Positions 89 to 22,394 of a stretch of DNA of 23,946 nucleotides are shown piece by piece. Position 1 is the first letter of the stretch. The number at the start of each line of letters is the position of its first letter. This stretch comes from a virus (taxonomy: Duplodnaviria > Heunggongvirae > Uroviricota > Caudoviricetes): IMG/VR virus record IMGVR_UViG_2617270941_000003, positions 1 through 23,946 of that record; one strand, 5' to 3'. The notes under the pieces are model-generated. The model was not told the origin of the DNA, searched no databases, and saw only the letters and a list, made by a program, of their open reading frames with translations. A program made the translations under genes and the position numbers.

Positions 89-121
89 AAGCCCGCGATA
101 TTTTAAGCGGGCTTTTATTTT
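89..121 (+). terminator. Rho-independent terminator-like hairpin just beyond the tfa 3' end
   Basis: Stem AAGCCCGC (89-96), 10-nt loop, GCGGGCTT (107-114), followed by TTATTTT. The T-run is on the plus strand, so it best fits a convergent upstream plus-strand gene; it may act weakly in both directions. Confidence 0.5.
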
Positions 122-701
122 AAACTTCAGGTATTACAGGCCACTCAATATCAGGTGCAGTTGATGTATCAACACGGTTCAGCAACACCCGATACTTTTT
201 CCAGGCTTCCAGCAATGAGGTTTCTTCCTCCGTTGCGATTTCCAGATCTACAGCATCCTGAAGTGGCGCAATATGCTCACTGGCTACCTGCATCAGGTTG
301 TTTTTTGTTTCTTCCGCCTCCCGGATCCGGAACAGTTTTTCTGCTTCTGCATCTTTCACCCAGGCTGTGCCGTTCCACTTCTGAAACTCCCCTTCCGGGG
401 ATAACCAGGTGACATTTTCCGGTAATAAGCCGAGTTCAGAAATAAATAACGCGTCGCCGGAAGCCACGTCATAAACCGTTTTACCCCGATGGTCTTCAAC
501 AAGATGCCACGATGCCTCATCACTGTTGAAAACAGCCACGAAGCCTGCCGGAATATCTGGCGGTGCAATATCGGTACTGTTTGCTGGCAGACCTGTATGA
601 GGCGGAATATATGCGTCACCTTCACCAATAAATTCATTAGTTCCGGCCAGCAGATTATAAATTTTTATGGTCCGTGGTTGTTCACTCATTCTGAATGCCA
701 T
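120..701 (-). CDS. tfa: Tail fibre assembly protein (Tfa family chaperone)
   Basis: 193-aa ORF whose translation ([24 protein letters not shown]...) matches the TfaR/TfaQ/TfaE family as I recall it. Its ATG overlaps the upstream tail-fibre stop by one base (TAATG). Confidence 0.85.
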
Positions 702-2125
702 TATGCAAGCCTCACAATATAGTTAAATGCGATGTTTTTGACGGTGTTTTCCGCGTTACCAGCAGCGTTAATGGTGATGGTGTGTCCATGTGAACCAATC
801 GCAACGGAGTGCGTATGAGCACCAATACCGACAGTATGTGCATGTGCGCCTGCGCTTGCAGCAGTGCCGGACAGCGAGTGGGTATGAGCACCATCTGATG
901 ATGTCTTCCCTGCATTACGAGTCTGGCCAGTACCGCTTGTTGTGCTCATAATCCCCGCGCTTAGATTTGAAATCGCGGTATAACCATTAGGGAAAATGCT
1001 CGTGTTCGTGCCACCAAATGCACCGGAACTCTTGTGTTGGTGCGCACCGGCACTATTTGCAGTCCCGCTAATACTATGGGTATGCGCCCCGGTGTTATTC
1101 GTGGATTTGGTTCCGTAATCAAACGACGATGTGTTTTTCGTCCCCAAATCCGTACTGGATGCGCTGGCGCTGTGGGTGTGCGATTTAATGCCGTCCTGTT
1201 CCTGAGACAATACGGCACGACCACTGGCGGGTTTGCCCTTAATCGTCCAGCCACGCATATCAGGGATCACGCCTGACGGATAAGCGGCTGCAAGTTTCGG
1301 GTATGCAGATTTGTCAAAAGTCTGCCCCTGCATCAGGGCATAGCCAGACGGAACGGTATCTGATGGCCACGGGATTGGTGCGCCAGGCGGATAAAACTGC
1401 TCTGATGGCGTATAGAGTGAATAAACTGTACCGTCCGTTAACCCTTCCGGCTTATTAGCAGAATATGCTGGTGACGTATGAATCGTCACGCTGGCATTAC
1501 TGGTATAATCCCATTGAATATTTACACCAGTCGCATAATTTCCGATTGCAACGTAAATATCGTAAGTATCACCAGATGTATTGACCCAGGCAAAATTTGT
1601 AAACCCTGTCGATGTGCGCTGCCATAAAGCACCAGTAATCCCCTTCGGATTACCATTACCTGCACGCAAAACAAGTTCAGATATACCTGCCTGTTGAGGT
1701 GACCCCACGTTAAATCCCGCGCCACCAATCAACGTAATTGAAACAACAGAACTCGCCTGTGGCATGGTTACCGTTGCTAATTTGAACCAACCAGCACCAC
1801 CGCTGAATGACATTGTTGTTGAGTTAAGCGTACCAATATCTTTCGGCGTCAGTGTTATATCCGCTGAAAGCGCCTTACCATTCACCTTACGGGCAGAAGG
1901 TAGACTATCTTTAATTTCTCGCTCATACAGCCTTGCTTTATGAATAAAACGCACCCCAGCAGCCAGTGCTACTGGGGACGGAGGTGTTGCTGGTAAAGTT
2001 AGGTATTGGATCAATGAGTGAGTCAACATAATATTAAACTCACAATTATAAATCAGCCATATATTAGGAGCGCCAAAAAAAACCTGAAAACAATATAATA
2101 ACAGGATAAATTTCAAGGCGACCAA
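701..2125 (-). pseudogene. stf: Side tail fibre gene, C-terminal fragment only (5'-truncated stf remnant)
   Basis: The C-terminal part has repeated GAHTHS/GAHQH/GAHAH motifs and ends [11 protein letters not shown], typical of lambdoid Stf C-termini. The N-terminal ~50 codons of the ORF are AT-rich, non-homologous sequence that overlaps the trkG 3' end, so the gene has lost its 5' portion. Confidence 0.7.
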
Positions 2126-3521
2126 GAATCATAGCTATGCACATTAAACATTTTGCAATGTCATTAAGCACTCCGAATGACGATGCAGTAGCCCCAAAAC
2201 CTAATCCCATATTATTAATACATGCAGCCACTGTTGCAAATGATGTAAGAAAATCATATCCCATACCATTTAACACCAGTATAAAAAACACCGTGAAGAG
2301 AGTATAAAGAAAAAAGAAACTCCATACAGACCTCATTACACGATCTGTAACTATCTTCCCTCCTACATTTACACTCAACAACGCTCTGGGATGAGAAAGC
2401 TGATTTATCTCGTGTTTGCTTTGTTTGAAAAGTATAAGAAATCGAAGTGACTTAATTCCACCACAAGTTGAACCTATACATCCCCCAAAGAAACTTGACA
2501 ACAGCAAAAACACTATCGTGTGCGTGGGCCAACTTGCATAATCCTGCGTAGCTAAACCATTATCAGTGAGCATGGAGCTGGCAAGAAAAAACGAATGAAT
2601 AAAACTTCCATGCAAGTCATACATACCTATATGCCAGACCTGGAAAGAGGTAACAATGATCACCCCTAAGGCTATTAACAGAAAGAAACGAAGTTCAATA
2701 TCTCTGATTAAAGGTTTTATCGTTTTCCTGCTAATAACAATATACCAAAGAGTGAAGTTGAAAGCCGATAGCAGGGAAAAAGAACCAGCCACCAGCTCAA
2801 CCAAATAGTTATTAAAATATCCGATACTCTCGCTATGAGTTGAGAAACCACCAAGCGAAACTGTGGAAATCCCGTGACAAATAGCATCAAACAAAGGCAT
2901 TCCTGCAAGTCTATAACAGACAATACAAGCAATACCTAATAAAGAATAAGTTATCCACAGTGTCCGTGACGTATCGGCCAGGCGGGGAGTGAGTTTGTCA
3001 TCCTTAAATGGCCCCGGCATTTCTGACTGATAAAGCTTTGCACCACCAATACCCAATAATGGCAATACAGCAACCGCCAGAACAATAACTCCTAAACCAC
3101 CTATAAAATTTAACTGTGACCGATAGTACAAATATGCCCGAGGTAATGAACTAACATCATCAATTACAGTTGCTCCTGTTGTTGTTATTCCAGAAACCCC
3201 TTCAAACAGAGCATCAATGAACGTTAAATTAAGTTCTGAGTCAATCCATAAAGGGAATGCACTAATAACAGAAAACAAAATCCAAAACATTACAATTATA
3301 ATAAACCCATCACGGGTACGTAATTGAATGCCAGATTTCTTAGTTGTATACCACGCTCCGCCACCAATGCAAAAAAATATAACGAAAGTTATAAAGAAAA
3401 CGAACAGGCTTTTTTCTTTATAAAACAATGCTACAACCATTGGTGGCAACATTGAAAGACTATAGAGCCAAACCAGGAACCCACACATATGAGTAACAAC
3501 TCTTACATGAGATGTATTCAT
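2064..3521 (-). CDS. trkG: Trk-type potassium uptake membrane protein (TrkG/TrkH family)
   Basis: Multi-pass membrane protein. Starting at the internal Met (MNTSHVRVV...) gives 485 aa, the length I recall for Rac-encoded TrkG, and the sequence reads like TrkG/TrkH throughout. Confidence 0.85.
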
Positions 3522-3658
3522 ATCTAAATATTCTTTCAATTATAACCACCTTGCTGCAATATTATGATTATACTGTATAAAATTTAACTCCTCTTAGATC
3601 TTACTTCACTGTTCCTTATGAAACAATCATCAAAATGAATCATATTGTAGTTAAGATT

Positions 3659-4624: not shown

Positions 4625-4939
4625 TTACCGATGACCCTCATTGCCGCACCACGAATAGCAAACACCAATCAGCCCCACCCCACCACCAATGGCAACAGAA
4701 AGTGATTTAGGCCATCCGACATACTCAAGCGCGGATGCAAAGGTCAGCGTCAGAGCACCACAAAGCAGAATCTCAAGCGTTTTTCGTTTCCAGCCGCCGC
4801 CACCGCCAAAATAGGCAATGCGCAAACCAGCCATAATAATTGACATAACCACTGCACCCAGCGGCGTATCTCCACGCCACCAACTTTGTAAGAGTTCCAG
4901 TAAGTCAGGCCAGGAATGAGGGGCATTGTGCATTTTCAT
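4625..4939 (-). CDS. S: Putative class I holin with a lambda-S-like dual start (Met-Lys-Met)
   Basis: Small protein with three hydrophobic segments directly upstream of R-Rz-Rz1. The ORF opens at GTG (4948) followed by in-frame ATG-AAA-ATG (4939 and 4933), behind a GGAGGTGA Shine-Dalgarno. The sequence itself does not resemble lambda S and lacks a strongly charged C-terminal tail, so the call rests mainly on position and topology. Confidence 0.6.
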   Translation of the reverse strand: MKMHNAPHSWPDLLELLQSWWRGDTPLGAVVMSIIMAGLRIAYFGGGGGWKRKTLEILLCGALTLTFASALEYVGWPKSLSVAIGGGVGLIGVCYSWCGNEGHR

Positions 4940-5035
4940 AAGCCTCACCTCCGAGAGTTCGGATGGTGCTAAGTGTAAGATTCAGGCTCTCAGGCTTGCT
5001 AACAAGAAGTCGAGGATGTTTCCGGAGCCTAACAA

Positions 5036-5062
5036 CGAAAAAGCCCCGGGACATGCCGGGGC
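5036..5062 (-). terminator. Rho-independent terminator (minus strand) between the membrane-protein moron and the holin
   Basis: Minus-strand GC-rich hairpin (plus-strand GCCCCGG 5043-5049 pairing with CCGGGGC 5056-5062) followed on the minus strand by TTTTT. Confidence 0.5.
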
Positions 5063-5156
5063 CAGATGGAGTGCCAGATTAAGCTTCTGGCGGTATATAC
5101 TCGTGTTTGATATCGTTAAATCGCCAAAAGTAACAATTCAAACAAAGAGGATTTTT

Positions 5157-5318
5157 ATGTCTGAAAAAAACAAACCACAAGGTGAAAATAAACCTCAGCA
5201 ACCCGTGGCACCAAAACCAACTCCAACACAAAGTACTACAGACTTTGCTACACGTCGTGTTTTTGTTGGAGATTCTGCCGACTCAGTCATTGAACATATA
5301 AAAAAACAGCCGAGATAA
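5157..5318 (+). CDS. Hypothetical small hydrophilic protein (53 aa, Pro/Gln-rich N-terminus)
   Basis: ATG at 5157 preceded by AGAGGA 7 nt upstream. Translation MSEKNKPQGENKPQQPVAPKPTPTQSTTDFATRRVFVGDSADSVIEHIKKQPR. Its 3' end overlaps the 3' end of the convergent minus-strand gene by 32 nt. The longer ORF in the track (from 4926) overlaps the holin start and is probably not the real N-terminus. Confidence 0.35.
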   Translation: MSEKNKPQGENKPQQPVAPKPTPTQSTTDFATRRVFVGDSADSVIEHIKKQPR

Positions 5319-5856
5319 ACATCGCCGCTACCGGAGCAAGGATGGTATACATCCTTGCTTTATCGAGACTCGTGCGGATTTTCTCATTTTCCAACAGTAA
5401 CTCTCTTGCTGTATCACTCAAGTCAACAAGGCGATACCTTCGTATAAGCGGCAATAACTTATCAGGTCCTAAATATCCTGCATCAGCGAATATTTTAAAG
5501 CTCGAGGGCTCCATATCCTTATATTTTTCATGATATAGATGATCAGGAGGGGCATTGATCAGGCCCCTAACCTTCACAGATAAACCAGTACATACCAAGT
5601 AAATGGCGCACCATGTCCATAGTAATGTAAATGTGGTAATTCCGGCGGTGAGAAAATCGAAATTAGTTTTCTGTGTCAGCAATAAAAAAGATGAACCAAT
5701 TCCAACAATCTGAATGTTCAGAAGTTTGTATCCATTCTCAACATTGGTTTTGTTAGAAAGATGAATCTCTCGTATCGTCTCTTCCCCTTGTTTTTCAAGA
5801 TAATCGACGAGCTCATCATCTACTCCTAAAAAATAATCTTTAGGTAGTTCTCTCAT
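5287..5856 (-). CDS. Hypothetical membrane protein (189 aa, acidic N-terminal domain, three predicted TM segments); moron between the Q region and the lysis cassette
   Basis: ATG with GGAGGTGA Shine-Dalgarno 4 nt upstream. AT-rich codon usage unlike neighbouring phage genes. No family recognised from the sequence. Confidence 0.6.
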   Translation of the reverse strand: MRELPKDYFLGVDDELVDYLEKQGEETIREIHLSNKTNVENGYKLLNIQIVGIGSSFLLLTQKTNFDFLTAGITTFTLLWTWCAIYLVCTGLSVKVRGLINAPPDHLYHEKYKDMEPSSFKIFADAGYLGPDKLLPLIRRYRLVDLSDTARELLLENEKIRTSLDKARMYTILAPVAAMFISAVFLYVQ

Positions 5857-5963
5857 CTCACCTCCACATCCTGTACTGAAAACAATTTTACCAGAATGTC
5901 TCGATTCTAGGTATTCCGCCAGGAATCGCGCTCCAGAAATGAAACATCAGGTTCGCCAGTACC

Positions 5964-5994
5964 AGAAACAACAAAACCCGCTCAATGGCGGGTT
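5964..5994 (-). terminator. Putative tR'-like terminator downstream of the Q-like gene
   Basis: Minus-strand hairpin (plus-strand AACCCGC 5975-5981 and GCGGGTT 5988-5994) followed on the minus strand by TTTTGTTGTTT. Sits where lambdoid phages place tR', between Q and the first late gene. Confidence 0.5.
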
Positions 5995-6077
5995 CTGGTA
6001 AAGTTCATGCGCTTGGTTCGCCTCGCGATACAGCTTTGCGAAGCATACCGGAATTGAAGCAGTTTATGCGTAAAAAA

Positions 6078-6620
6078 TCAAGCTATTTTTTGAGCAAATG
6101 ATTCTCGCATGGGAATATATAGGGCATACTCAGCAACAGCCAACCAATTAGCAATTCGCTTTTCGCATGTGCTAAAACACCACTCAGGATGTGCATCATT
6201 TAGCAATTCAGCCATTTTGCGCTTAGTCATCCCCCGTCCTTCATACCGTTGCCGGAGGACACTAATCAATCCAGGATGCTCTGCCAGCACCTCACTTATG
6301 ACTCTATCAATACATAACGCCTCTGCATCAGTACAATGCGCCAGCCAGGTCTTTTGCTTGCCATTGATCATCTCTCGCAAAAACGCTTCCAGCTCAGGTT
6401 TCTCTATTCCCGCTTTTTTCATCCTGCGCAGGGCTTCATTGACGGCTGTTTTCGTCAATTTTTTGGATGCCAGCAACTGGTTAAACATATTTCCCGTCTT
6501 ACCGCCGCCAATATACGACCAGCGCCCCCACATGCGCAGTTTTCCCTGAATCCAGACACTTTCCAGCGTGGTGAGACGAAGGTGTTCCCCGCTTTTGCCT
6601 GTATTTGTTGGGTAAATCAT
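6078..6620 (-). CDS. Putative late-gene antiterminator (Q-like); family assignment uncertain
   Basis: 180 aa from the internal ATG at 6620 (MIYPTNTGKSG...), with a GGAGAAAGGAAGG ribosome-binding region, translationally coupled to the upstream gene by an ATGA overlap. It sits immediately upstream of a terminator and the lysis genes. The Q-like assignment is from position and overall resemblance, not a verified alignment. Confidence 0.5.
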   Translation of the reverse strand: MIYPTNTGKSGEHLRLTTLESVWIQGKLRMWGRWSYIGGGKTGNMFNQLLASKKLTKTAVNEALRRMKKAGIEKPELEAFLREMINGKQKTWLAHCTDAEALCIDRVISEVLAEHPGLISVLRQRYEGRGMTKRKMAELLNDAHPEWCFSTCEKRIANWLAVAEYALYIPMRESFAQKIA

Positions 6621-6907: not shown

Positions 6908-7506
6908 TACGCAAACTCCAGTAGTTGTGCGGCCACATTTTCAACTTCCTCCTGAGAGGAGAATTTACGGAACAGAATCCAGTTCCACAGCACATTCAGA
7001 ACAGATTTATAAACCTGCTGAAACTCGGTTTCGTCCATATTCGCAAACGCGATGGATTTCGCCCTGCGCCCACGGCTACCGTCCGGATAAATATGCTCGG
7101 TGTAAAATCCGGCCTGAATGGTTACCCACTCGCGGAAAGCCTCAAACGACTTTAGCAATGCCGTATCCCGAGTTCTGCGTGTCGCAACTGTATTTAGATA
7201 TTGCTCTGCGGCATCACTCAGGGCTGGTGTGTGTTCCCGACCAACTGATTCGCACAAGTAATCCACGAAACCAGACAGCAGTTCTCGTTCGCGAGGTGTG
7301 ATCGCCCCACCGACCGGAGTCCAGTAATCGAATCCCAGTTGCAGGAGTTTGAAAAAACGCTTGTGGAATGCGTAGTTACGCACACGCTTAAAGTCTGCGT
7401 GTATCCACTCACCTATTTTGATTTGATGCAGAAAATCGCAACTCTCCGGCGTCGCCGGGAGAAGTAAACCAGAAGAGGTTTGTTTGACCAGTTGTATATG
7501 CGCCAT
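6907..7506 (-). CDS. nin-region phage protein, possibly DUF1367 family
   Basis: 199-aa ORF directly upstream of, and coupled to, the YbcO-like gene, an arrangement common in lambdoid nin regions. Family assignment is from memory and is tentative. Confidence 0.5.
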   Translation of the reverse strand: MAHIQLVKQTSSGLLLPATPESCDFLHQIKIGEWIHADFKRVRNYAFHKRFFKLLQLGFDYWTPVGGAITPRERELLSGFVDYLCESVGREHTPALSDAAEQYLNTVATRRTRDTALLKSFEAFREWVTIQAGFYTEHIYPDGSRGRRAKSIAFANMDETEFQQVYKSVLNVLWNWILFRKFSSQEEVENVAAQLLEFA

Positions 7507-7786
7507 TTCTCAATCTCTCGATGGCGCAGCGCAGCAGATGCCAGTTGTTCAGGCTGACGAATAAAGTATAAATAAACTGGCTATGGTGTAAAGCCCCACA
7601 TAGCATGAACAAACACTACATATCAAATAGCTGGTACAAGGATAGAAATACGACATTTATTATTAAAAACGATTAGATAAATTACATTTTAATGTTATGC
7701 AAAAGTTCTTTTTTATCATAACATTTCAATAAAAGCATTACAGATGCAATCATCCCGTCATCATCAATTATTTAAGGTGGTTAAAC

Positions 7787-7873
7787 ATGGAAAATAACAA
7801 GTTCGCACATCTCGCTCCTTTTTTATCCGTAATCCTTTTCGCTTGTTGTTTTATATGGGCATTATTTTTATAA
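7787..7873 (+). CDS. Candidate small hydrophobic protein (28 aa): MENNKFAHLAPFLSVILFACCFIWALFL
   Basis: ATG at 7787 with AAGGTGG 6 nt upstream, a single predicted TM helix and a Cys-Cys pair. Lies in an otherwise ORF-free AT-rich stretch. Confidence 0.4.
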   Translation: MENNKFAHLAPFLSVILFACCFIWALFL

Positions 7874-7947
7874 AGTAGCCGCATGATAAGTTGCTGGAAT
7901 CATATTTCCCACTCAAGTCATTAACATTTGATAAGATATATCTAAAA

Positions 7948-8006
7948 GGACACCTTTACATTATTTATGTGTATATAATTTATTTATATACACAGTAAAG
8001 GTATCC
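7948..8006. repeat. Nested imperfect palindrome in AT-rich non-coding DNA
   Basis: Outer arms GGACACCTTTAC (7948-7959) and GTAAAGGTATCC (7995-8006), 11 of 12 complementary. Inner arms TGTGTATATA (7968-7977) and TATATACACA (7985-7994), a perfect 10-bp inverted repeat with a 7-bp spacer. Confidence 0.5.
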
Positions 8007-8264
8007 TGGGAAAATATTTATCGTTAAAAAATACATCATAAATAATTAAGCTGAAATTTCAGAACACAACTAATACACACAATAAGGTTCAGTAACAATA
8101 ATCTATGTGGACTACATCGAGATTTTTTGATTAAACTTTAATAACTTATTCCTAACACACAGAATGCATAAACTAAAAGTAAAACAAATAGTTATACGAA
8201 AAACAACCATATTTATTATATCTTCTCCTCTAATCAACATATCAATTATGTGTTTCATAACAGC

Positions 8265-8312
8265 TTGACATAACCCTCAAAAACACGCATTTATAATGCA
8301 TGTTTTTGAGGG
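8265..8312 (+). promoter_or_regulatory. Putative promoter with an overlapping 17-bp inverted-repeat operator upstream of the YeaR-like gene
   Basis: Consensus TTGACA (8265-8270) and TATAAT (8292-8297), but with a long 21-bp spacer. Inverted repeat CCCTCAAAAACACGCAT (8274-8290) / ATGCATGTTTTTGAGGG (8296-8312), one mismatch, centred on the -10 element. Confidence 0.45.
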
Positions 8313-8319
8313 GGTGGTT

Positions 8320-8658
8320 ATGACACACAAGAGAATTCCTAAAGATTGGGTAATCAAACGCTCAACTCCGTTCTTCACAAAAGAGAACGTACCTTCAGCG
8401 TTATTAACACATCATAATACAGCAGCAGGTGTTTTTGGGCAGTTGTGCGTAATGGAAGGCACTGTAACATATTATGGTTTTACTGATGAGAATGCTACTG
8501 AACCGGAGATAAAAGTAGTCATTAATGCTGGCGCTTTTGCAACAAGCCCACCACAATACTGGCACCGTGTTGAACTAAGCGATGATGCTCAGTTTAATAT
8601 TAACTTTTGGGTCGCTCCAGACTTCTCGGGCGAAAAAGTCTATAGCACCAAAAAATAG
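8320..8658 (+). CDS. YeaR-like protein (DUF1971, the domain also found at the TehB N-terminus)
   Basis: 112 aa from the ATG at 8320 (GAGGGGG Shine-Dalgarno). Motifs RSTPFF, CVMEGTVTYYGFTDE, EPEIKVVINAGAFATSPPQYWHRVE and FNINFWVAPD parallel E. coli YeaR as I recall it. Confidence 0.65.
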   Translation: MTHKRIPKDWVIKRSTPFFTKENVPSALLTHHNTAAGVFGQLCVMEGTVTYYGFTDENATEPEIKVVINAGAFATSPPQYWHRVELSDDAQFNINFWVAPDFSGEKVYSTKK

Positions 8659-8687
8659 ATGATCATATTAAAAATGCTTTAACAGTC

Positions 8688-8725
8688 AGACCCGGCAGGG
8701 CTATCCCCGACGGGTCTCATTTTTG
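8688..8725 (+). terminator. Rho-independent terminator of the YeaR-like gene
   Basis: AGACCCG (8688-8694), loop, CGGGTCT (8711-8717), then CATTTTTGT. Confidence 0.6.
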
Positions 8726-9420: not shown

Positions 9421-11746
<2,326 letters not shown>

Positions 11747-12047
11747 TTTAATTACCTTATATATCCAAACTCTTAATTTTCTCTTTTTTACCATAGGATT
11801 AATCCAAAATAAAGACCTTGTTGACTAAACCCTCATGTACAAAATGCACACTTACTCAAAAGGATCTGGAGGCAATCTCGACCTCCATGATTTAGTTCCT
11901 AGGGATAAGCAGAAATCTAGCACTGGATTAAAATTTAAAAATAATAATCAATAGGTTATAATGGTTTTTATTCGCATCCATGGGATCTGCTGCTGCCCGC
12001 ATGATGTTGGATGCGACGGCGCTGGCACGACCTCACCCGGTGAAACG

Positions 12048-17798: not shown

Positions 17799-20700
17799 AT
17801 GAGCACAAAACCACTCTTCCTATTACGGAAAGCGAAAAAATCATCCGGTGAACCTGACGTCGTCCTGTGGGCAAGCGACGATTTTGAATCGACCTGTGCC
17901 ACTCTGGACTACCTGATCGTTAAGTCAGGTAAAAAACTGAGCAGCTATTTTAAAGCTGTTGCCACGAATTTTCCTGTCGTTAATGACCTGCCCGCTGAAG
18001 GTGAGATCGATTTTACCTGGAGTGAACGCTACCAACTCAGCAAAGACTCCATGACATGGGAACTAAAACCGGGAGCAGCACCAGACAACGCTCACTATCA
18101 AGGCAATACCAACGTCAACGGCGAAGACATGACTGAGATTGAGGAGAATATGCTACTCCCAATTTCTGGCCAGGAACTGCCCATTCGCTGGCTTGCTCAA
18201 CACGGCAGCGAAAAACCGGTAACGCATGTTTCACGCGACGGACTCCAGGCATTACACATTGCTCGGGCTGAAGAACTACCGGCTGTTACTGCCCTGGCTG
18301 TTTCCCACAAAACCAGCCTGCTCGACCCGCTGGAAATTCGCGATCTCCACAAACTGGTTCGTGACACTGACAAAGTTTTCCCTAATCCTGGTAATTCAAA
18401 CCTGGGACTGATAACTGCTTTTTTCGAAGCATACCTGAACGCTGACTACACCGATCGAGGACTGCTGACAAAAGAGTGGATGAAGGGTAATCGTGTTTCA
18501 CACATCACTCGCACGGCTTCCGGTGCTAATGCTGGCGGCGGAAACCTCACCGATCGCGGCGAAGGTTTCGTACACGATCTGACGTCACTGGCGCGCGACG
18601 TAGCCACTGGCGTACTGGCCCGTTCAATGGATCTGGACATCTATAACCTTCATCCGGCACACGCTAAACGCATTGAGGAAATTATCGCTGAAAATAAACC
18701 GCCCTTTTCTGTTTTCCGCGACAAATTCATCACCATGCCTGGCGGGCTGGATTATTCCCGCGCCATCGTGGTTGCGTCCGTAAAAGAAGCACCAATTGGG
18801 ATCGAGGTCATCCCCGCGCACGTCACTGAATATCTGAACAAAGTACTGACTGAAACCGATCATGCCAACCCTGATCCGGAAATCGTGGATATTGCCTGCG
18901 GTCGCTCCTCTGCCCCAATGCCGCAGCGTCTAACAGAAGAAGAAAAACAGGATGATGAAGAAAAACCGCAACCATCTTGCGCAATGGCAGATGAACAGGC
19001 AACGGCTGAAACAGTGGAACCGGATGCAACTGAACATCATCAGGACACGCAGCCGCTGGATGCTCAGTCACAGGTAAATTCTGTTGATGCGAAGTATCAG
19101 AAACTGCGGGCAGAACTCCATGAAGCCCGGAAAAACATTCCGCCCAAAAATCCTGTCGATGCAGACAAATTACTGGCTGCCTATCGCGGAGAATTTGTTG
19201 AAGGGATTAGCGACCCGAATGATCCGAAATGGGTTAAGGGGATCCAGACCCGCGATTCTGTGTACCAGCATCAGCCAAAAACGGAACAGAACGACCGAAA
19301 ATCGGAACAAAACGGCCAAAATGCGCGACAAAATGAACCAGAAGCGCAACAGGAACCGGAAAAAGTCTGCGCCGCCTGCGGTCAGACCGGCGGCAGTAAC
19401 TGCCCTGACTGTGGCGCGGTGATGGGCGACGCAACATACCAGGAAACATTCGATGAAGAGAATCAGGTTGAAGCTAAGGAAAATGATCCGGAGGAAATGG
19501 AAGGCGCTGAACATCAGCACAAGGAGAACGCTGGCAACCATCCGCATCACGATTGCAGTGATGAAACTGGTGAAGCGTCAGCTCATGTAGCAACTGAAAT
19601 CATGTGGCCATCATATTTCGAGCCTGGCCGCTATGAAAACCTCCCGAGCGAGGTTTATCACTCCGCCAACGGAATAAGCAGCACAATGCTGAAGGATGCC
19701 CGCATCAGTCTGATGTATTACCACGGGCGGCACATTGCCAGGACTATTCCGAACGAGGAAAGTGATGCATTGCTGCGTGGGCGGATCATTCACAGCTATG
19801 TTCTGGAAACGGATAAATTCGCTGATGAATATGCCATTCCGGTACCGGTTCCTGAATATGTGGTTACTACTTCTAACGAACTGATCACCATCATTAAAAA
19901 ACACAATGCCAGTCTGCCATCACTGATGACACCAGAGCAGATGAAAGAGTGGATCGAAAGCTACAACAGCACTCTTATACAGCCACTGTCGGTAAGCGCT
20001 GGGGCCGAAGAAACAGGCATCCTTTACGGTTCGCTTCCGGAGGAATTTCGGCGTATTCCTGAGGGGGAAAAACACAAAGCATCAGCAATGAAAGCCTGTA
20101 TTAAAGAATACAACGCAAGCCTCCCTCCTCTGCTGAAAACCAGTGGAACACGGGAGCAGCTTCTGGAGCAAATTGAAACTGTAGATCCAGAACTGGCAAA
20201 AAAAGAACGTGCTAAATCGTTGCCTTACAACATCAGTGGCACAAAAGAGCAATTAACCGAAATCGCCCGGAAAATTCGCCCGAAACTGGTAACACTGGAG
20301 GATTGGCAAAAACGCCAGCAAGAAGAAAATGCAGGAAAAACGTTTATCAGTCCAGATATGTATGAACAGGCAAAAAATATTCACGCGGCACTGCAAAACA
20401 ATACTGACGCGGCAAGACTACTCAACCACCCGGATCGCAAATCTGAAATCAGCTATTTCGGGTTTGATGAAGAAACCGGGCTGGAAATCAGGGTCCGCCC
20501 TGATATCGAAATCCGACTGCCATACGAAAGCATCTGCGCCGACGTGAAGTCAGTCAGCCTCGGTTATGTGCGGCAAGAACGACTAAAAGATCGCTTACAC
20601 CGTGAAATTATTGAACGTGATTATCACCTGAGCGCCGCAATGTACTGCGATGTGGCAAACCTGGACAAATTTTTCTGGATCTTCGTCAACAAAGATGCTG

Positions 20701-20891
20701 GCTATCACTGGGTGGCTGTCGTGGAAGCCTCGCAGGAACTCCTGGAACTTGGTCGACAGGAATATCGCCGGACGCTACGACAGATAAACGAAGCGCTGGA
20801 GACAAACAACTGGCCAGCACCGATTACCGAAAGTTATACCGACGAATTAAACGACTTTGATCTTCGTCGTCTTGAAGCACTGAGCATCTGA
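17799..20891 (+). CDS. recE: Exodeoxyribonuclease VIII (RecE-like), 1030 aa, with a divergent C-terminal PD-(D/E)XK nuclease domain
   Basis: The N-terminal ~600 aa ([44 protein letters not shown]...) follow K-12 RecE closely as recalled, including the CxxC...CPDC zinc ribbon. The C-terminal domain ([11 protein letters not shown]...RPDIEIR...ADVKSVS) is RecE/YqaJ-like but clearly different from K-12 and longer. Confidence 0.85.
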
Positions 20892-20902
20892 GGAAGGACA
20901 CA

Positions 20903-21955
20903 ATGAACGAATTAACTCAACAAGAAAATATTAACTCTAATGTTGCGGTTTTCAGCCCTCAGTCTCTGACTGCAATTCAGACGTTTTCTCAGGTAATGGC
21001 TTCCGGCATGGCTACTGTACCGGAACACCTCCGAGGAAATCCATCAGACTGCATGGCCATCACCATGCAGGCGATGCAGTGGCAAATGAACCCTTACGCA
21101 GTAGCTCAGAAAACTTTCGTTGTGAATGGTGTGCTCGGATATGAAGCGCAACTGGTTAATGCCGTAATCAGTACTCGTGGGCCGCTAACCGGGCGTATTG
21201 AATATGACTGGTTCGGGCCGTGGGAAAAAATTATCGGGAAATTTGAAATCAGGAAGAACGACAAAGGGAAAGAATATCGTGTACCTGGCTGGAAGCTGGC
21301 CGATGAAAACGGGATTGGAGTTCGCGTCCAGGCAACACTACGCGGAGAGAGCAAACCACGCGTACTGGAGTTACTTCTGGCGCAGGCCAGAACACGTAAC
21401 TCAACGTTATGGGCCGATGATCCTCGTCAGCAGCTTGCCTATCTGGCACTCAAACGCTGGGCGCGCCTTTATTGCCCTGAAGTGATTCTTGGAGTGTACA
21501 CCCGGGACGAACTGGACGAACCACAGGAAAAAATCATTAATCCGGTTCAGGAACATAAAAACACATCCGCCTGCCGTGCGGAACGTGAAACAACAATTAT
21601 TGAGCAGGATGCCGGGGAAAACTGGATCAGTGCTTTCCGTGAACGTATTGAGCAGGCACAAAGCACCGGAGAAACAACAGCACTTCGGCAGGAAGTGGAA
21701 GAGCATAAAAATACACTTGGCGCTCTCTATACGGAACTAAAAGGAAAAGTGGTTCAGCGTCATCACCGTCTCAATGCTATTGCCCGTATTGAGAAGATGA
21801 TAAATGACCTGCCTTCATCAGGTGATCCGGAAGCAGAACAAAAATTTACTGCTCTGGAAAATACGCTGAATACTGCACGACCACATCTGGGAGAATTATA
21901 TGAGGCGTATAAAACGACACTGACAGATATGAAACCAGAATATATCGAACCCTGA
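20903..21955 (+). CDS. Single-strand annealing protein, RecT/Red-beta-like partner of RecE (not the K-12 RecT sequence)
   Basis: 350-aa ORF 11 nt downstream of recE, in the position of recT. No Walker motifs, which argues against a Sak4/RecA-type protein. Family assignment by position and general character only. Confidence 0.55.
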   Translation: MNELTQQENINSNVAVFSPQSLTAIQTFSQVMASGMATVPEHLRGNPSDCMAITMQAMQWQMNPYAVAQKTFVVNGVLGYEAQLVNAVISTRGPLTGRIEYDWFGPWEKIIGKFEIRKNDKGKEYRVPGWKLADENGIGVRVQATLRGESKPRVLELLLAQARTRNSTLWADDPRQQLAYLALKRWARLYCPEVILGVYTRDELDEPQEKIINPVQEHKNTSACRAERETTIIEQDAGENWISAFRERIEQAQSTGETTALRQEVEEHKNTLGALYTELKGKVVQRHHRLNAIARIEKMINDLPSSGDPEAEQKFTALENTLNTARPHLGELYEAYKTTLTDMKPEYIEP

Positions 21956-22018: not shown

Positions 22019-22213
22019 ATGCGGTATGAAAAAGTCAAACCATGTCTATTTTGTGGTTGTCCATCAGTAACGGTGAACGCCATTTCAGGATATTACCGAG
22101 CGAAGTGTAACGGATGCGAATCCCGAACCGGTTATGGTGGAAGTGAAAAAGAAGCACTCGAAAGATGGAATAAACGAACCACTGGAAATAATAATGGAGG
22201 TGTTCATGTATAA
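22019..22213 (+). CDS. ralR: Lar/RalR (restriction alleviation protein and type I toxin DNase)
   Basis: 64 aa from MRYEKVKPCLFCGCPSVTVNAISGYYRAKCNGCESRTGYGGSEKEALERWNKRTTGNNNGGVHV, near-identical to Rac Lar as recalled. Confidence 0.8.
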   Translation: MRYEKVKPCLFCGCPSVTVNAISGYYRAKCNGCESRTGYGGSEKEALERWNKRTTGNNNGGVHV

Positions 22214-22394
22214 AATTACCGCCACTATTGAAAAGGAAGGTGGCACTCCTACTAACTGGACAAGATATTCAAAATCTAAACTAACGAAATCAGAATGCGA
22301 AAAAATGCTCTCAGGTAAAAAAGAAGCAGGCGTTTCCAGAGAGCAGAAAGTAAAACTGATAAATTTTAATTGCGAGAAACTTCAGTCCTCGTGA
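22206..22394 (+). CDS. ydaC: YdaC-like small protein
   Basis: 62 aa from MYKITATIEKEGGTPTNWTRYSK..., with GGAGGTG Shine-Dalgarno. Its start overlaps the lar stop (ATGTATAA). An upstream in-frame ATG at 22194 is also possible. Confidence 0.6.
   Translation: MYKITATIEKEGGTPTNWTRYSKSKLTKSECEKMLSGKKEAGVSREQKVKLINFNCEKLQSS

Follow-up and report, generated by a model that had tools for sequence, protein, structure and literature searches.

The window analyzed here, the whole 23,946-nt stretch of IMG/VR virus record IMGVR_UViG_2617270941_000003, is a portion of a Rac-like lambdoid prophage of Escherichia coli. Between the gene for the late antiterminator Q and the holin gene, it carries two convergent genes, namely a minus-strand gene for a membrane protein of 189 residues, here called M189, and a plus-strand gene for a basic protein of 53 residues, here called the small gene, together with conserved stem-loops and a terminator (Table 1). 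These elements form a mobile, autonomous and insulated two-gene prophage moron of approximately 0.93 kb (about 5962 to 5036), and their most likely role is that of an abortive-infection or exclusion module acting at the membrane.

Table 1. Features of the two-gene cassette and of its surroundings, with positions in the window
Feature	Position	Strand	Evidence
M189 gene (189 aa, three predicted transmembrane helices; phrog_11870)	5287..5856	-	ORF list, profile matches, structure model
Small gene (53 aa, basic, Pro/Gln/Lys-rich)	5157..5318	+	phrog_14506 (unknown function), E=6e-33; Shine-Dalgarno sequence AGAGGA at 5146-5151
Leader stem-loop with conserved 12-nt loop	5104..5144		Alignments, folds; inner stem 100% paired with compensatory changes
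Second stem-loop, GCCAGA...TCTGGC	5072..5092		Alignment, folds; helix 2 90% paired
Cassette-ending intrinsic terminator (8-bp stem, 7 GC pairs, T-run)	5042..5063	-	Terminator scan
TGGTAAAAT, extended -10-like element, 29-37 nt upstream of the M189 ATG	5885..5893	-	Read from sequence
tR'-like intrinsic terminator	5972..5997	-	Terminator scan
Candidate late promoter, pR'-like (TTGGCT-18-TATATT)	6114..6143	-	Promoter scan; pattern match only
Q-type late antiterminator, DUF1133 family (context)	6078..6620	-	Pfam DUF1133, E=5e-109; Phage_antitermQ, 27 bits
Lambda-family holin (context)	4625..4948	-	PF05106, E=2e-23

An earlier note on this DNA had described an AT-rich open reading frame (ORF) of 189 codons, whose product has an acidic N-terminus and three transmembrane (TM) helices, and the ORF, its composition, the hydrophobicity profile and an AlphaFold2 model all bore out this description. 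The GC content of the gene was 39%, compared with 44% for the window and approximately 50% for the flanking lysis genes, and its ATG start codon is preceded by GGAGG at 5865-5861. Residues 1-42 contain 11 D/E and 5 K/R and are followed by three hydrophobic segments (approximately 43-62, 68-92 and 169-189), and the AlphaFold2 model (pLDDT 83) showed long helices at 14-62, 68-92 and 134-188. The search for homologues detected 104 proteins, nearly all of 189 aa, in Escherichia, Klebsiella, Citrobacter, Serratia, Yersinia, Proteus, Morganella, Providencia, Pantoea and other genera, with 25 columns invariant across Enterobacterales, indicating that M189 is a real gene and not a chance ORF. The conserved features included a G-I-G-S-S face in TM1, the invariant residues P104, L107 and Y108, and an invariant R-R-Y-R-L patch. 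The predicted topology is that of an inner-membrane protein with a cytoplasmic N-terminus, in which an acidic cytoplasmic helix would lead into TM1 with its G-I-G-S-S face and, through a tight hairpin, into TM2. A cytoplasmic helical segment bearing the R-R-Y-R-L patch would then connect TM2 to the C-terminal TM3.

The small gene was missed in the earlier note. It converges with M189, the two coding sequences overlapping by 32 nt at the 3' end of M189, and lies in the 225-nt interval from the M189 stop codon to the terminator. The enterobacterial small proteins conserve the N-terminus M-S-x-x-N-K-P, the motif R-V-F-V-G-D-S-A-D/E and a Lys-rich tail. Differences per site among these copies were 0.56 at codon position 3, compared with 0.36 and 0.31 at the other positions. 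The AlphaFold model of the small protein was coil over residues 1-40 and mostly disordered. The ATG at 5157 was preferred as the start codon, as this ATG and its ribosome-binding site are conserved between loci. The 71-aa version of the ORF called by PGAP (GTG at 5103) was rejected, as the upstream frame is not conserved between loci.

The pairing of the two genes is conserved. A convergent, 3'-overlapping ORF of 42-53 aa was found beside the M189 homologue in nearly all loci having downstream sequence (besides the window, L002-L006, L010-L013, L015, L017, L019, L020, L022, L024 and L028), including those of Trabulsiella, Serratia, Yersinia, Leclercia, Pantoea, Morganella and the 47.5-kb phage pPE4. 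Such an ORF was also present beside remote M189 homologues of 17-30% identity. The chance rate of such a convergent ORF, taken over the remaining large ORFs of these loci, was approximately 5%. Across 5,426 complete E. coli genomes, the cassette halves co-occurred at approximately 1:1 (224 vs 227 genomes at a coverage of at least 80%). The search for homologues with the small protein itself detected close relatives only.

Three stem-loops are located between the start codon of the small gene and the terminator. In a 10-sequence alignment, 80% of the cells paired, compared with 30-43% when the partners were slid, and double-sided changes were seen at 12 pairs; none of 500 shuffles reached the observed values, in a test with few sequences and with a structure derived from the window sequence itself. 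The leader stem-loop constitutes the 5' leader of the small gene and, on the other strand, the 3' untranslated region of M189, and includes the stretch of highest DNA conservation in the cassette, TGATATCGTTAAATCGCCAAAAGTAAC (5108-5134). The second stem-loop is represented in Trabulsiella by GCCGC...GCGGC instead. The hairpin and T-run of the terminator are kept with compensatory changes in nine of the ten cassettes; the earlier note had assigned M189 its own terminator at 5036-5062, and the GC-rich hairpin with its T-run was indeed present, although the scan placed it at 5063-5042. An Rfam search over 4900-6150 gave no match beyond one at chance level.

The terminator for the M189 strand lies beyond the small gene, so the M189 transcript would cover, in antisense, the small gene from end to end along with its ribosome-binding site and leader stem-loop, an overlap that follows directly from the geometry of the predicted elements. 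The overlap of the coding sequences, the position of the terminator past the entire small gene and the conserved stem-loops thus make up a cis-antisense arrangement. Upstream of M189, the element TGGTAAAAT / CAGGTAAAAT is conserved at approximately 30-40 nt from the ATG in most cassettes and in the remote locus L019; the motif (C/T)(A/T)GGTAAAAT was present in six to seven of the ten related cassettes, and CAGGTAAAGT was found at equal distance in L019. As judged from this conservation, TGGTAAAAT is possibly M189's own promoter. A sigma-70 promoter for the small gene was sought in the region of the conserved box and hairpin, where no register fitted all loci.

The gene order on the minus strand is Q, the tR'-like hairpin, M189, the terminator, holin, GH24 lysozyme, Rz/Rz1 and trkG (the start of Q being that of the PGAP annotation of strain D3 mapped to the window). 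M189 is thus the first gene past Q and the tR'-like terminator, in the sense of the late operon and upstream of the lysis genes. This order, together with the DUF1133-type Q and the PF05106 holin, agrees with the earlier note, which had placed M189 in the classic moron slot between a putative tR' and the lysis cassette. The position and the moron nature were therefore right, but the picture was incomplete, as it lacked the convergent gene, the stem-loops and the further slots described below. Compared with strain D3, the holin gene has a 2-bp deletion (GA) at approximately 4659, by which the C-terminal cytoplasmic tail is frameshifted (107 aa vs 113 aa in D3), and the lysis cassette of this prophage copy may be defective or mistimed. 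In the region 120-3539, the genes for tail fiber (701-2125) and tail-fiber assembly (120-701) adjoin trkG, whereas the counterpart in strain D3 holds ParB-like, terminase, portal and capsid genes; the Rac-like prophage of the window is a deletion remnant. The two-gene cassette is intact within this decayed prophage, with its frameshifted holin and lost head genes.

Comparison with other genomes revealed the mobility of the cassette. Partial matches end at query positions 1013-1024, corresponding to 5962-5973 of the window, just past the tR'-like terminator. The adjoining 119-bp segment 5962-6080, just upstream of which lies the candidate pR'-like promoter, was found at 85-100% identity in many of the approximately 1,270 other E. 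coli genomes in which the query was matched in part only. The Rac-like prophage of E. coli ATCC 8739 possesses a related DUF1133 Q and, without a mismatch, the 119-bp segment that extends from the stop codon of Q to just past tR', but holds other cargo in the slot (L023 3190-3782), namely tRNA-Thr, tRNA-Gly and a 106-aa hypothetical ORF, followed by a different, EssD-type holin. The M189 slot is therefore a site of cargo exchange. A tRNA-bearing layout of this slot is that of Stx phages, and since the slot holds stx in those phages, its cargo is expected to be expressed with, and regulated by, prophage induction. The presence or absence of the cassette at one site among related prophages, its own terminator (5063-5042) and its deviant GC content relative to the flanks are all features of a moron.

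Three kinds of slots were found in prophages. The Q-holin slot was occupied also in Pantoea, Morganella and pPE4, with differing and unrelated types of Q, holin and endolysin. In the immunity region of L017 and L019, cI is followed directly by the small ORF on the same strand, with the membrane gene converging on the latter, and L024 has a similar arrangement. In Burkholderia cenocepacia, the cassette lies in the late sense within a myovirus-type tail cluster. These positions suggest a common theme: the small gene occupies sites typical of genes expressed in the lysogen, or runs antisense to late genes, and the membrane gene is either oriented with the late genes or faces the cI operon. Approximately 4% of complete E. 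coli genomes and many other Enterobacterales carry the cassette, annotated just as 'hypothetical protein', but it is rare in sequenced phages (5 of 50,697).

Degraded copies were also encountered, accounting for three of the eight species-representative copies. In Leclercia adecarboxylata (L007 6001-6702), frameshifts have broken the M189 gene into three tblastn segments, next to an intact small gene of 92% identity, and Symbiopectobacterium and Yersinia pekkanenii (L008 and L009) retain only the 5' half of M189 and have lost the small gene. Approximately 27 E. coli genomes match just part of the small-gene region, and H76 (NZ_CP148405.1 2639182-2639246) has a lone 65-nt piece, which spans the second stem-loop and some of the conserved box, with no other part of the cassette. 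These partial matches may be scars of cassette loss or exchange.

The affiliation of M189 was pursued through its family. A profile search of 1.8 billion representative sequences detected 102 relatives (counted as representatives at 50% identity), all standalone proteins of approximately 160-200 aa and reaching Burkholderia, and a second profile search of the family found no domain fusions. When 71 diverse members were compared with PADLOC models, the PycTM model PDLC02364 was matched strongly by one and weakly by four. The strong match, P0129, aligned with E=1.5e-8 over residues 17-182 (profile 7-152 of 160), and also matched the '2TM effector' model PDLC00700 of CBASS (E=4e-5). P0129 is a member of the M189 family (hmmsearch E=1.1e-21; hhalign probability 99.4% at 31% identity), and shares the DDYFLD..LE and RRY motifs with it. 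The P0129 gene, located in the immunity region of a prophage, has a convergent ORF of 53 aa beside it and no neighboring cyclase. The four weak matches had E values of 0.011-0.1, and the three inspected individually begin at the same end of the model. Two family members matched SLATT_1 of NCBIfam marginally (E=0.046). As P0129 is both a family member and a match to the PycTM model, the M189 family most probably forms a divergent branch of the PycTM/2TM effector group that lacks a cyclase, as far as profile comparisons can tell. The guess of exclusion or abortive infection offered in the earlier note gains support from this transitive link. PycTM has been described as disrupting membrane integrity after activation, resulting in abortive infection (PMC11224242). 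The cassette is not to be filed as a Pycsar system, since the defining adjacent cyclase is missing. Weak Pfam matches of remote members (8xMP, DUF6249, Rv2743c/PspM and YLATT) were all below threshold and were discarded, and the literature on 8xMP provided nothing useful for the family. Accession and PHROG identifiers of the cassette were not mentioned in the literature searched or in the DefensePredictor supplements.

The reading that we prefer, with a probability of roughly 0.4, is that M189 is a membrane-disrupting effector restrained by the small protein or its transcript and released by transcription from the M189 side. The sequence comparisons establish the anatomy, the conserved gene pairing and stem-loop structure, the mobility between slots and the place of P0129 in the family, whereas toxicity, antidote role, promoters and trigger belong to the proposal. 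Judged by homology, M189 would oligomerize and damage or depolarize the membrane, leading to growth arrest or death as for an abortive-infection or exclusion-type effector; the G-I-G-S-S face, P104/L107/Y108 and the R-R-Y-R-L patch are candidate sites of oligomerization or regulation. In the lysogen, the small protein, its transcript or both would restrain M189 as an antidote or regulator, and strong transcription from the M189 side would tip the balance to M189. In the Q-holin slot, the trigger would be Q-dependent late read-through past tR'; alternatively, a labile partner may be lost during foreign infection. The taiEcA/atiEcA pair of phi80, a 'noncontiguous operon' in a Q-controlled late operon, serves as a precedent for this gating logic (PMC11364771). 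A bolder form of the proposal, which we regard as possible but doubtful, is that the cassette represents a new class of abortive-infection switches in prophages, in which an orphan PycTM-like pore former independent of any nucleotide signal would be held by a labile, disordered 50-aa protein and by cis-antisense pairing of the conserved, kissing stem-loops, and freed either when a foreign phage shuts off host expression or, for the prophage itself, by Q-dependent late read-through. If true, second-messenger effectors would have been rewired into toxin-antidote modules.

Several observations weigh against the effector reading. M189 itself, for which the earlier note could assign no family, matched no PycTM, SLATT or other model in Pfam, NCBIfam or PADLOC (E<=1), its PHROG being one of unknown function. 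No match was found among PDB sequences, and structure searches returned generic long helical bundles only. The link to PycTM is transitive, passing through the one strong match, P0129, on which the Pfam PycTM model (PF18967) scored below threshold (16 bits vs a cut-off of 27.2). No cyclase was found among the annotated or called genes of the window or of any clear homologue's locus. The remote small ORFs were not significantly detected by a hidden Markov model (HMM) of the enterobacterial small proteins, and are tied to the small gene by position, size and composition. The consensus promoter scan called a promoter for neither gene, so expression of M189 from its own promoter is something that we infer. 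Only 2 of 72,556 plasmids carry the cassette, and it therefore does not behave as a general addiction module. Finally, a depolarizing M189 made early in late transcription should fire the holin prematurely, which would be awkward unless its activity is gated.

The inner-membrane architecture of M189 would equally suit a superinfection-exclusion (Sie) protein that blocks DNA entry without killing, as do HK97 gp15, P22 SieA and T4 Imm, with the small gene tuning its expression. As with HK97 gp15, one of the several slots of the moron is a cluster of tail genes, which points in the same direction, as does its retention in a decayed prophage, and a late boost by Q would also guard the lysing cell. 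We consider this rather unlikely, as the sole significant homology is to killing-type effectors; hmmsearch against HK97 gp15, gp22 and gp23 gave approximately 1 bit, and hhalign of the family profile gave probabilities of 0.1% for lambda RexB and 0.2% for Rac SieB. Moreover, the partner is consistently present in the cassette, whereas, to our knowledge, the known single-protein Sie factors need no conserved partner.

In all enterobacterial loci, M189 comes first after tR', in the late sense, and immediately precedes the holin gene, which raises the alternative of a lysis accessory, that is, a holin-like, antiholin or timing protein whose partner sets the timing. The pore-forming relative PycTM is functionally holin-like, and Q read-through would silence the partner just as the lysis proteins are made. 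We judge this improbable to a similar degree, as the remote homologues with a partner adjoin cI or tail genes, far from lysis genes. Besides, the cassette has a separate terminator, remains intact although the holin is frameshifted, and is missing from the related prophage of ATCC 8739 and from nearly all phages. Neither Pfam nor PHROGs provided a holin family for M189, and hhalign of the family profile with lambda S gave a probability of 0.4%. The homologies that the earlier note had set against its own guess, to a lysis accessory or a housekeeping protein, were thus not found, as lambda S stayed below 1% and no housekeeping family matched in Pfam or NCBIfam.

The roles of the two genes might also be reversed as in Tai/Ati of phi80 (PMC11364771), with the small protein being the active anti-phage or host-modifying factor, and with M189, made only in the lytic phase, neutralizing or sequestering it to spare prophage development. 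In favor of this, the small gene is oriented opposite to the late operon in the window and directly follows cI on the same strand in L017 and L019, a placement suited to expression in the lysogen. Nevertheless, a disordered peptide of 42-53 aa whose conservation centers on a single short motif makes a poor effector candidate, and M189, by far the more conserved partner, resembles effectors rather than inhibitors, making this arrangement quite unlikely.

Least probable is a true cyclic-nucleotide receptor of the Pycsar or CBASS type served by an unlinked host or phage cyclase, for which the PycTM and 2TM model matches within the family and the invariant basic patch in the cytoplasmic segment may be cited, as the lack of a cyclase at any clear homologue's locus stands against it and the invariable small partner would be left unexplained. 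The most remote candidate relative, P0199 (L026 2930-6546), lies outside a prophage, 1.25 kb downstream of a gene for a 605-aa class III nucleotide cyclase with TPR repeats; this protein is a borderline relative (E=7e-4) that has no PycTM match, and the neighborhood may reflect either a true cyclase-effector pair or chance.

The cassette escapes current catalogues of defense systems. Should the link to PycTM be right, cyclase-less morons would be a further form in which the membrane effectors of cyclic-nucleotide immunity circulate, and their control would consist of a small protein and antisense transcription gated by the late switch of the phage. This hypothesis is directly testable, since the cassette of 0.9 kb is easy to clone.

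Other features were also noted in the window. A three-gene operon at 9421-11794 on the minus strand encodes an adenosine deaminase (PF00962), a Ham1-like NTP pyrophosphatase (PF01725) and a SIR2_2 protein (PF13289), a domain set that we take, as a candidate label only, to be that of the Kongming (KomA/B/C) anti-phage system. Strain D3 has a single 1210-aa hypothetical ORF there, so this position is another site of cargo exchange. An AT-rich island at 7500-8700 (GC 27-37%), between the NinG/DUF1367 region and the next genes, includes a gene for a DUF1971 protein (8296-8658, plus strand), where an annotated Hok/Gef toxin gene is present in strain D3. Rfam detected IS009 RNA (RF02111) at 160-358 and the small RNA RalA (RF02694, 225 bits) at 22212-22390 on the minus strand, the latter serving in Rac as the antitoxin to RalR in a type I toxin-antitoxin pair. 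The genes for RecE (17799-20891) and RecT (20903-21955) lie beside RalA.

Among known systems, PycTM (PDLC02364/02363; PF18967) is, like M189, a small standalone membrane protein of approximately 160-190 aa, and the family member P0129 aligns with its model end to end. The expected output, membrane disruption leading to abortive infection (PMC11224242), is assumed to be alike. M189 differs in having no model match of its own and no adjacent PycC cyclase in any locus, and its cassette has a convergent small gene and an antisense layout in prophage moron slots, in contrast to the two-gene cyclase-effector operon. The 2TM/SLATT effectors of CBASS (PDLC00700; SLATT_1) share the N-terminal helix, the TM hairpin and further helices, whereas M189 has an extra C-terminal TM helix, the model matches are weak, and no CD-NTase, SMODS or other nucleotidyltransferase neighbor was found in any locus of the M189 family.

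The organization of the cassette finds its parallels elsewhere. In taiEcA/atiEcA of phi80, one gene likewise lies antisense in a Q-controlled late operon beside a late-sense partner, and the late transcript reduces expression of the antisense gene; Tai is cytoplasmic and acts on tail assembly (PMC11364771). The proteins of the two systems are unrelated, and in the cassette, known here from sequence alone, the late-sense gene encodes a large membrane protein and the antisense gene a tiny one. Among type I toxin-antitoxin pairs, bsrG/SR4 and txpA/RatA in prophages of Bacillus subtilis have convergent, 3'-overlapping transcripts. The cassette resembles them in its membrane-targeting product, an mRNA overlapping a convergent transcript, the prophage location and stem-loops suited to loop-loop pairing. 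It differs in that the candidate toxin is 189 aa in length, not a peptide of less than 60 aa, and in that the partner transcript, rather than being a non-coding antisense RNA, contains a conserved ORF that has a ribosome-binding site and shows codon-position-3 bias. The gp15 and gp22/gp23 genes of HK97 are likewise autonomous inserts with their own terminator within late genes; gp22/gp23 (L031 6476-6976), annotated as 'moron' and 'reverse moron', are convergent with a 123-nt overlap inside the tail genes. They have no sequence similarity to the cassette, and gp15 is a protein of 62 aa with one TM helix. By these analogies, the cassette would work most like a PycTM/2TM effector, and would be organized as a cis-antisense toxin-antidote pair or 'noncontiguous operon' within a moron.

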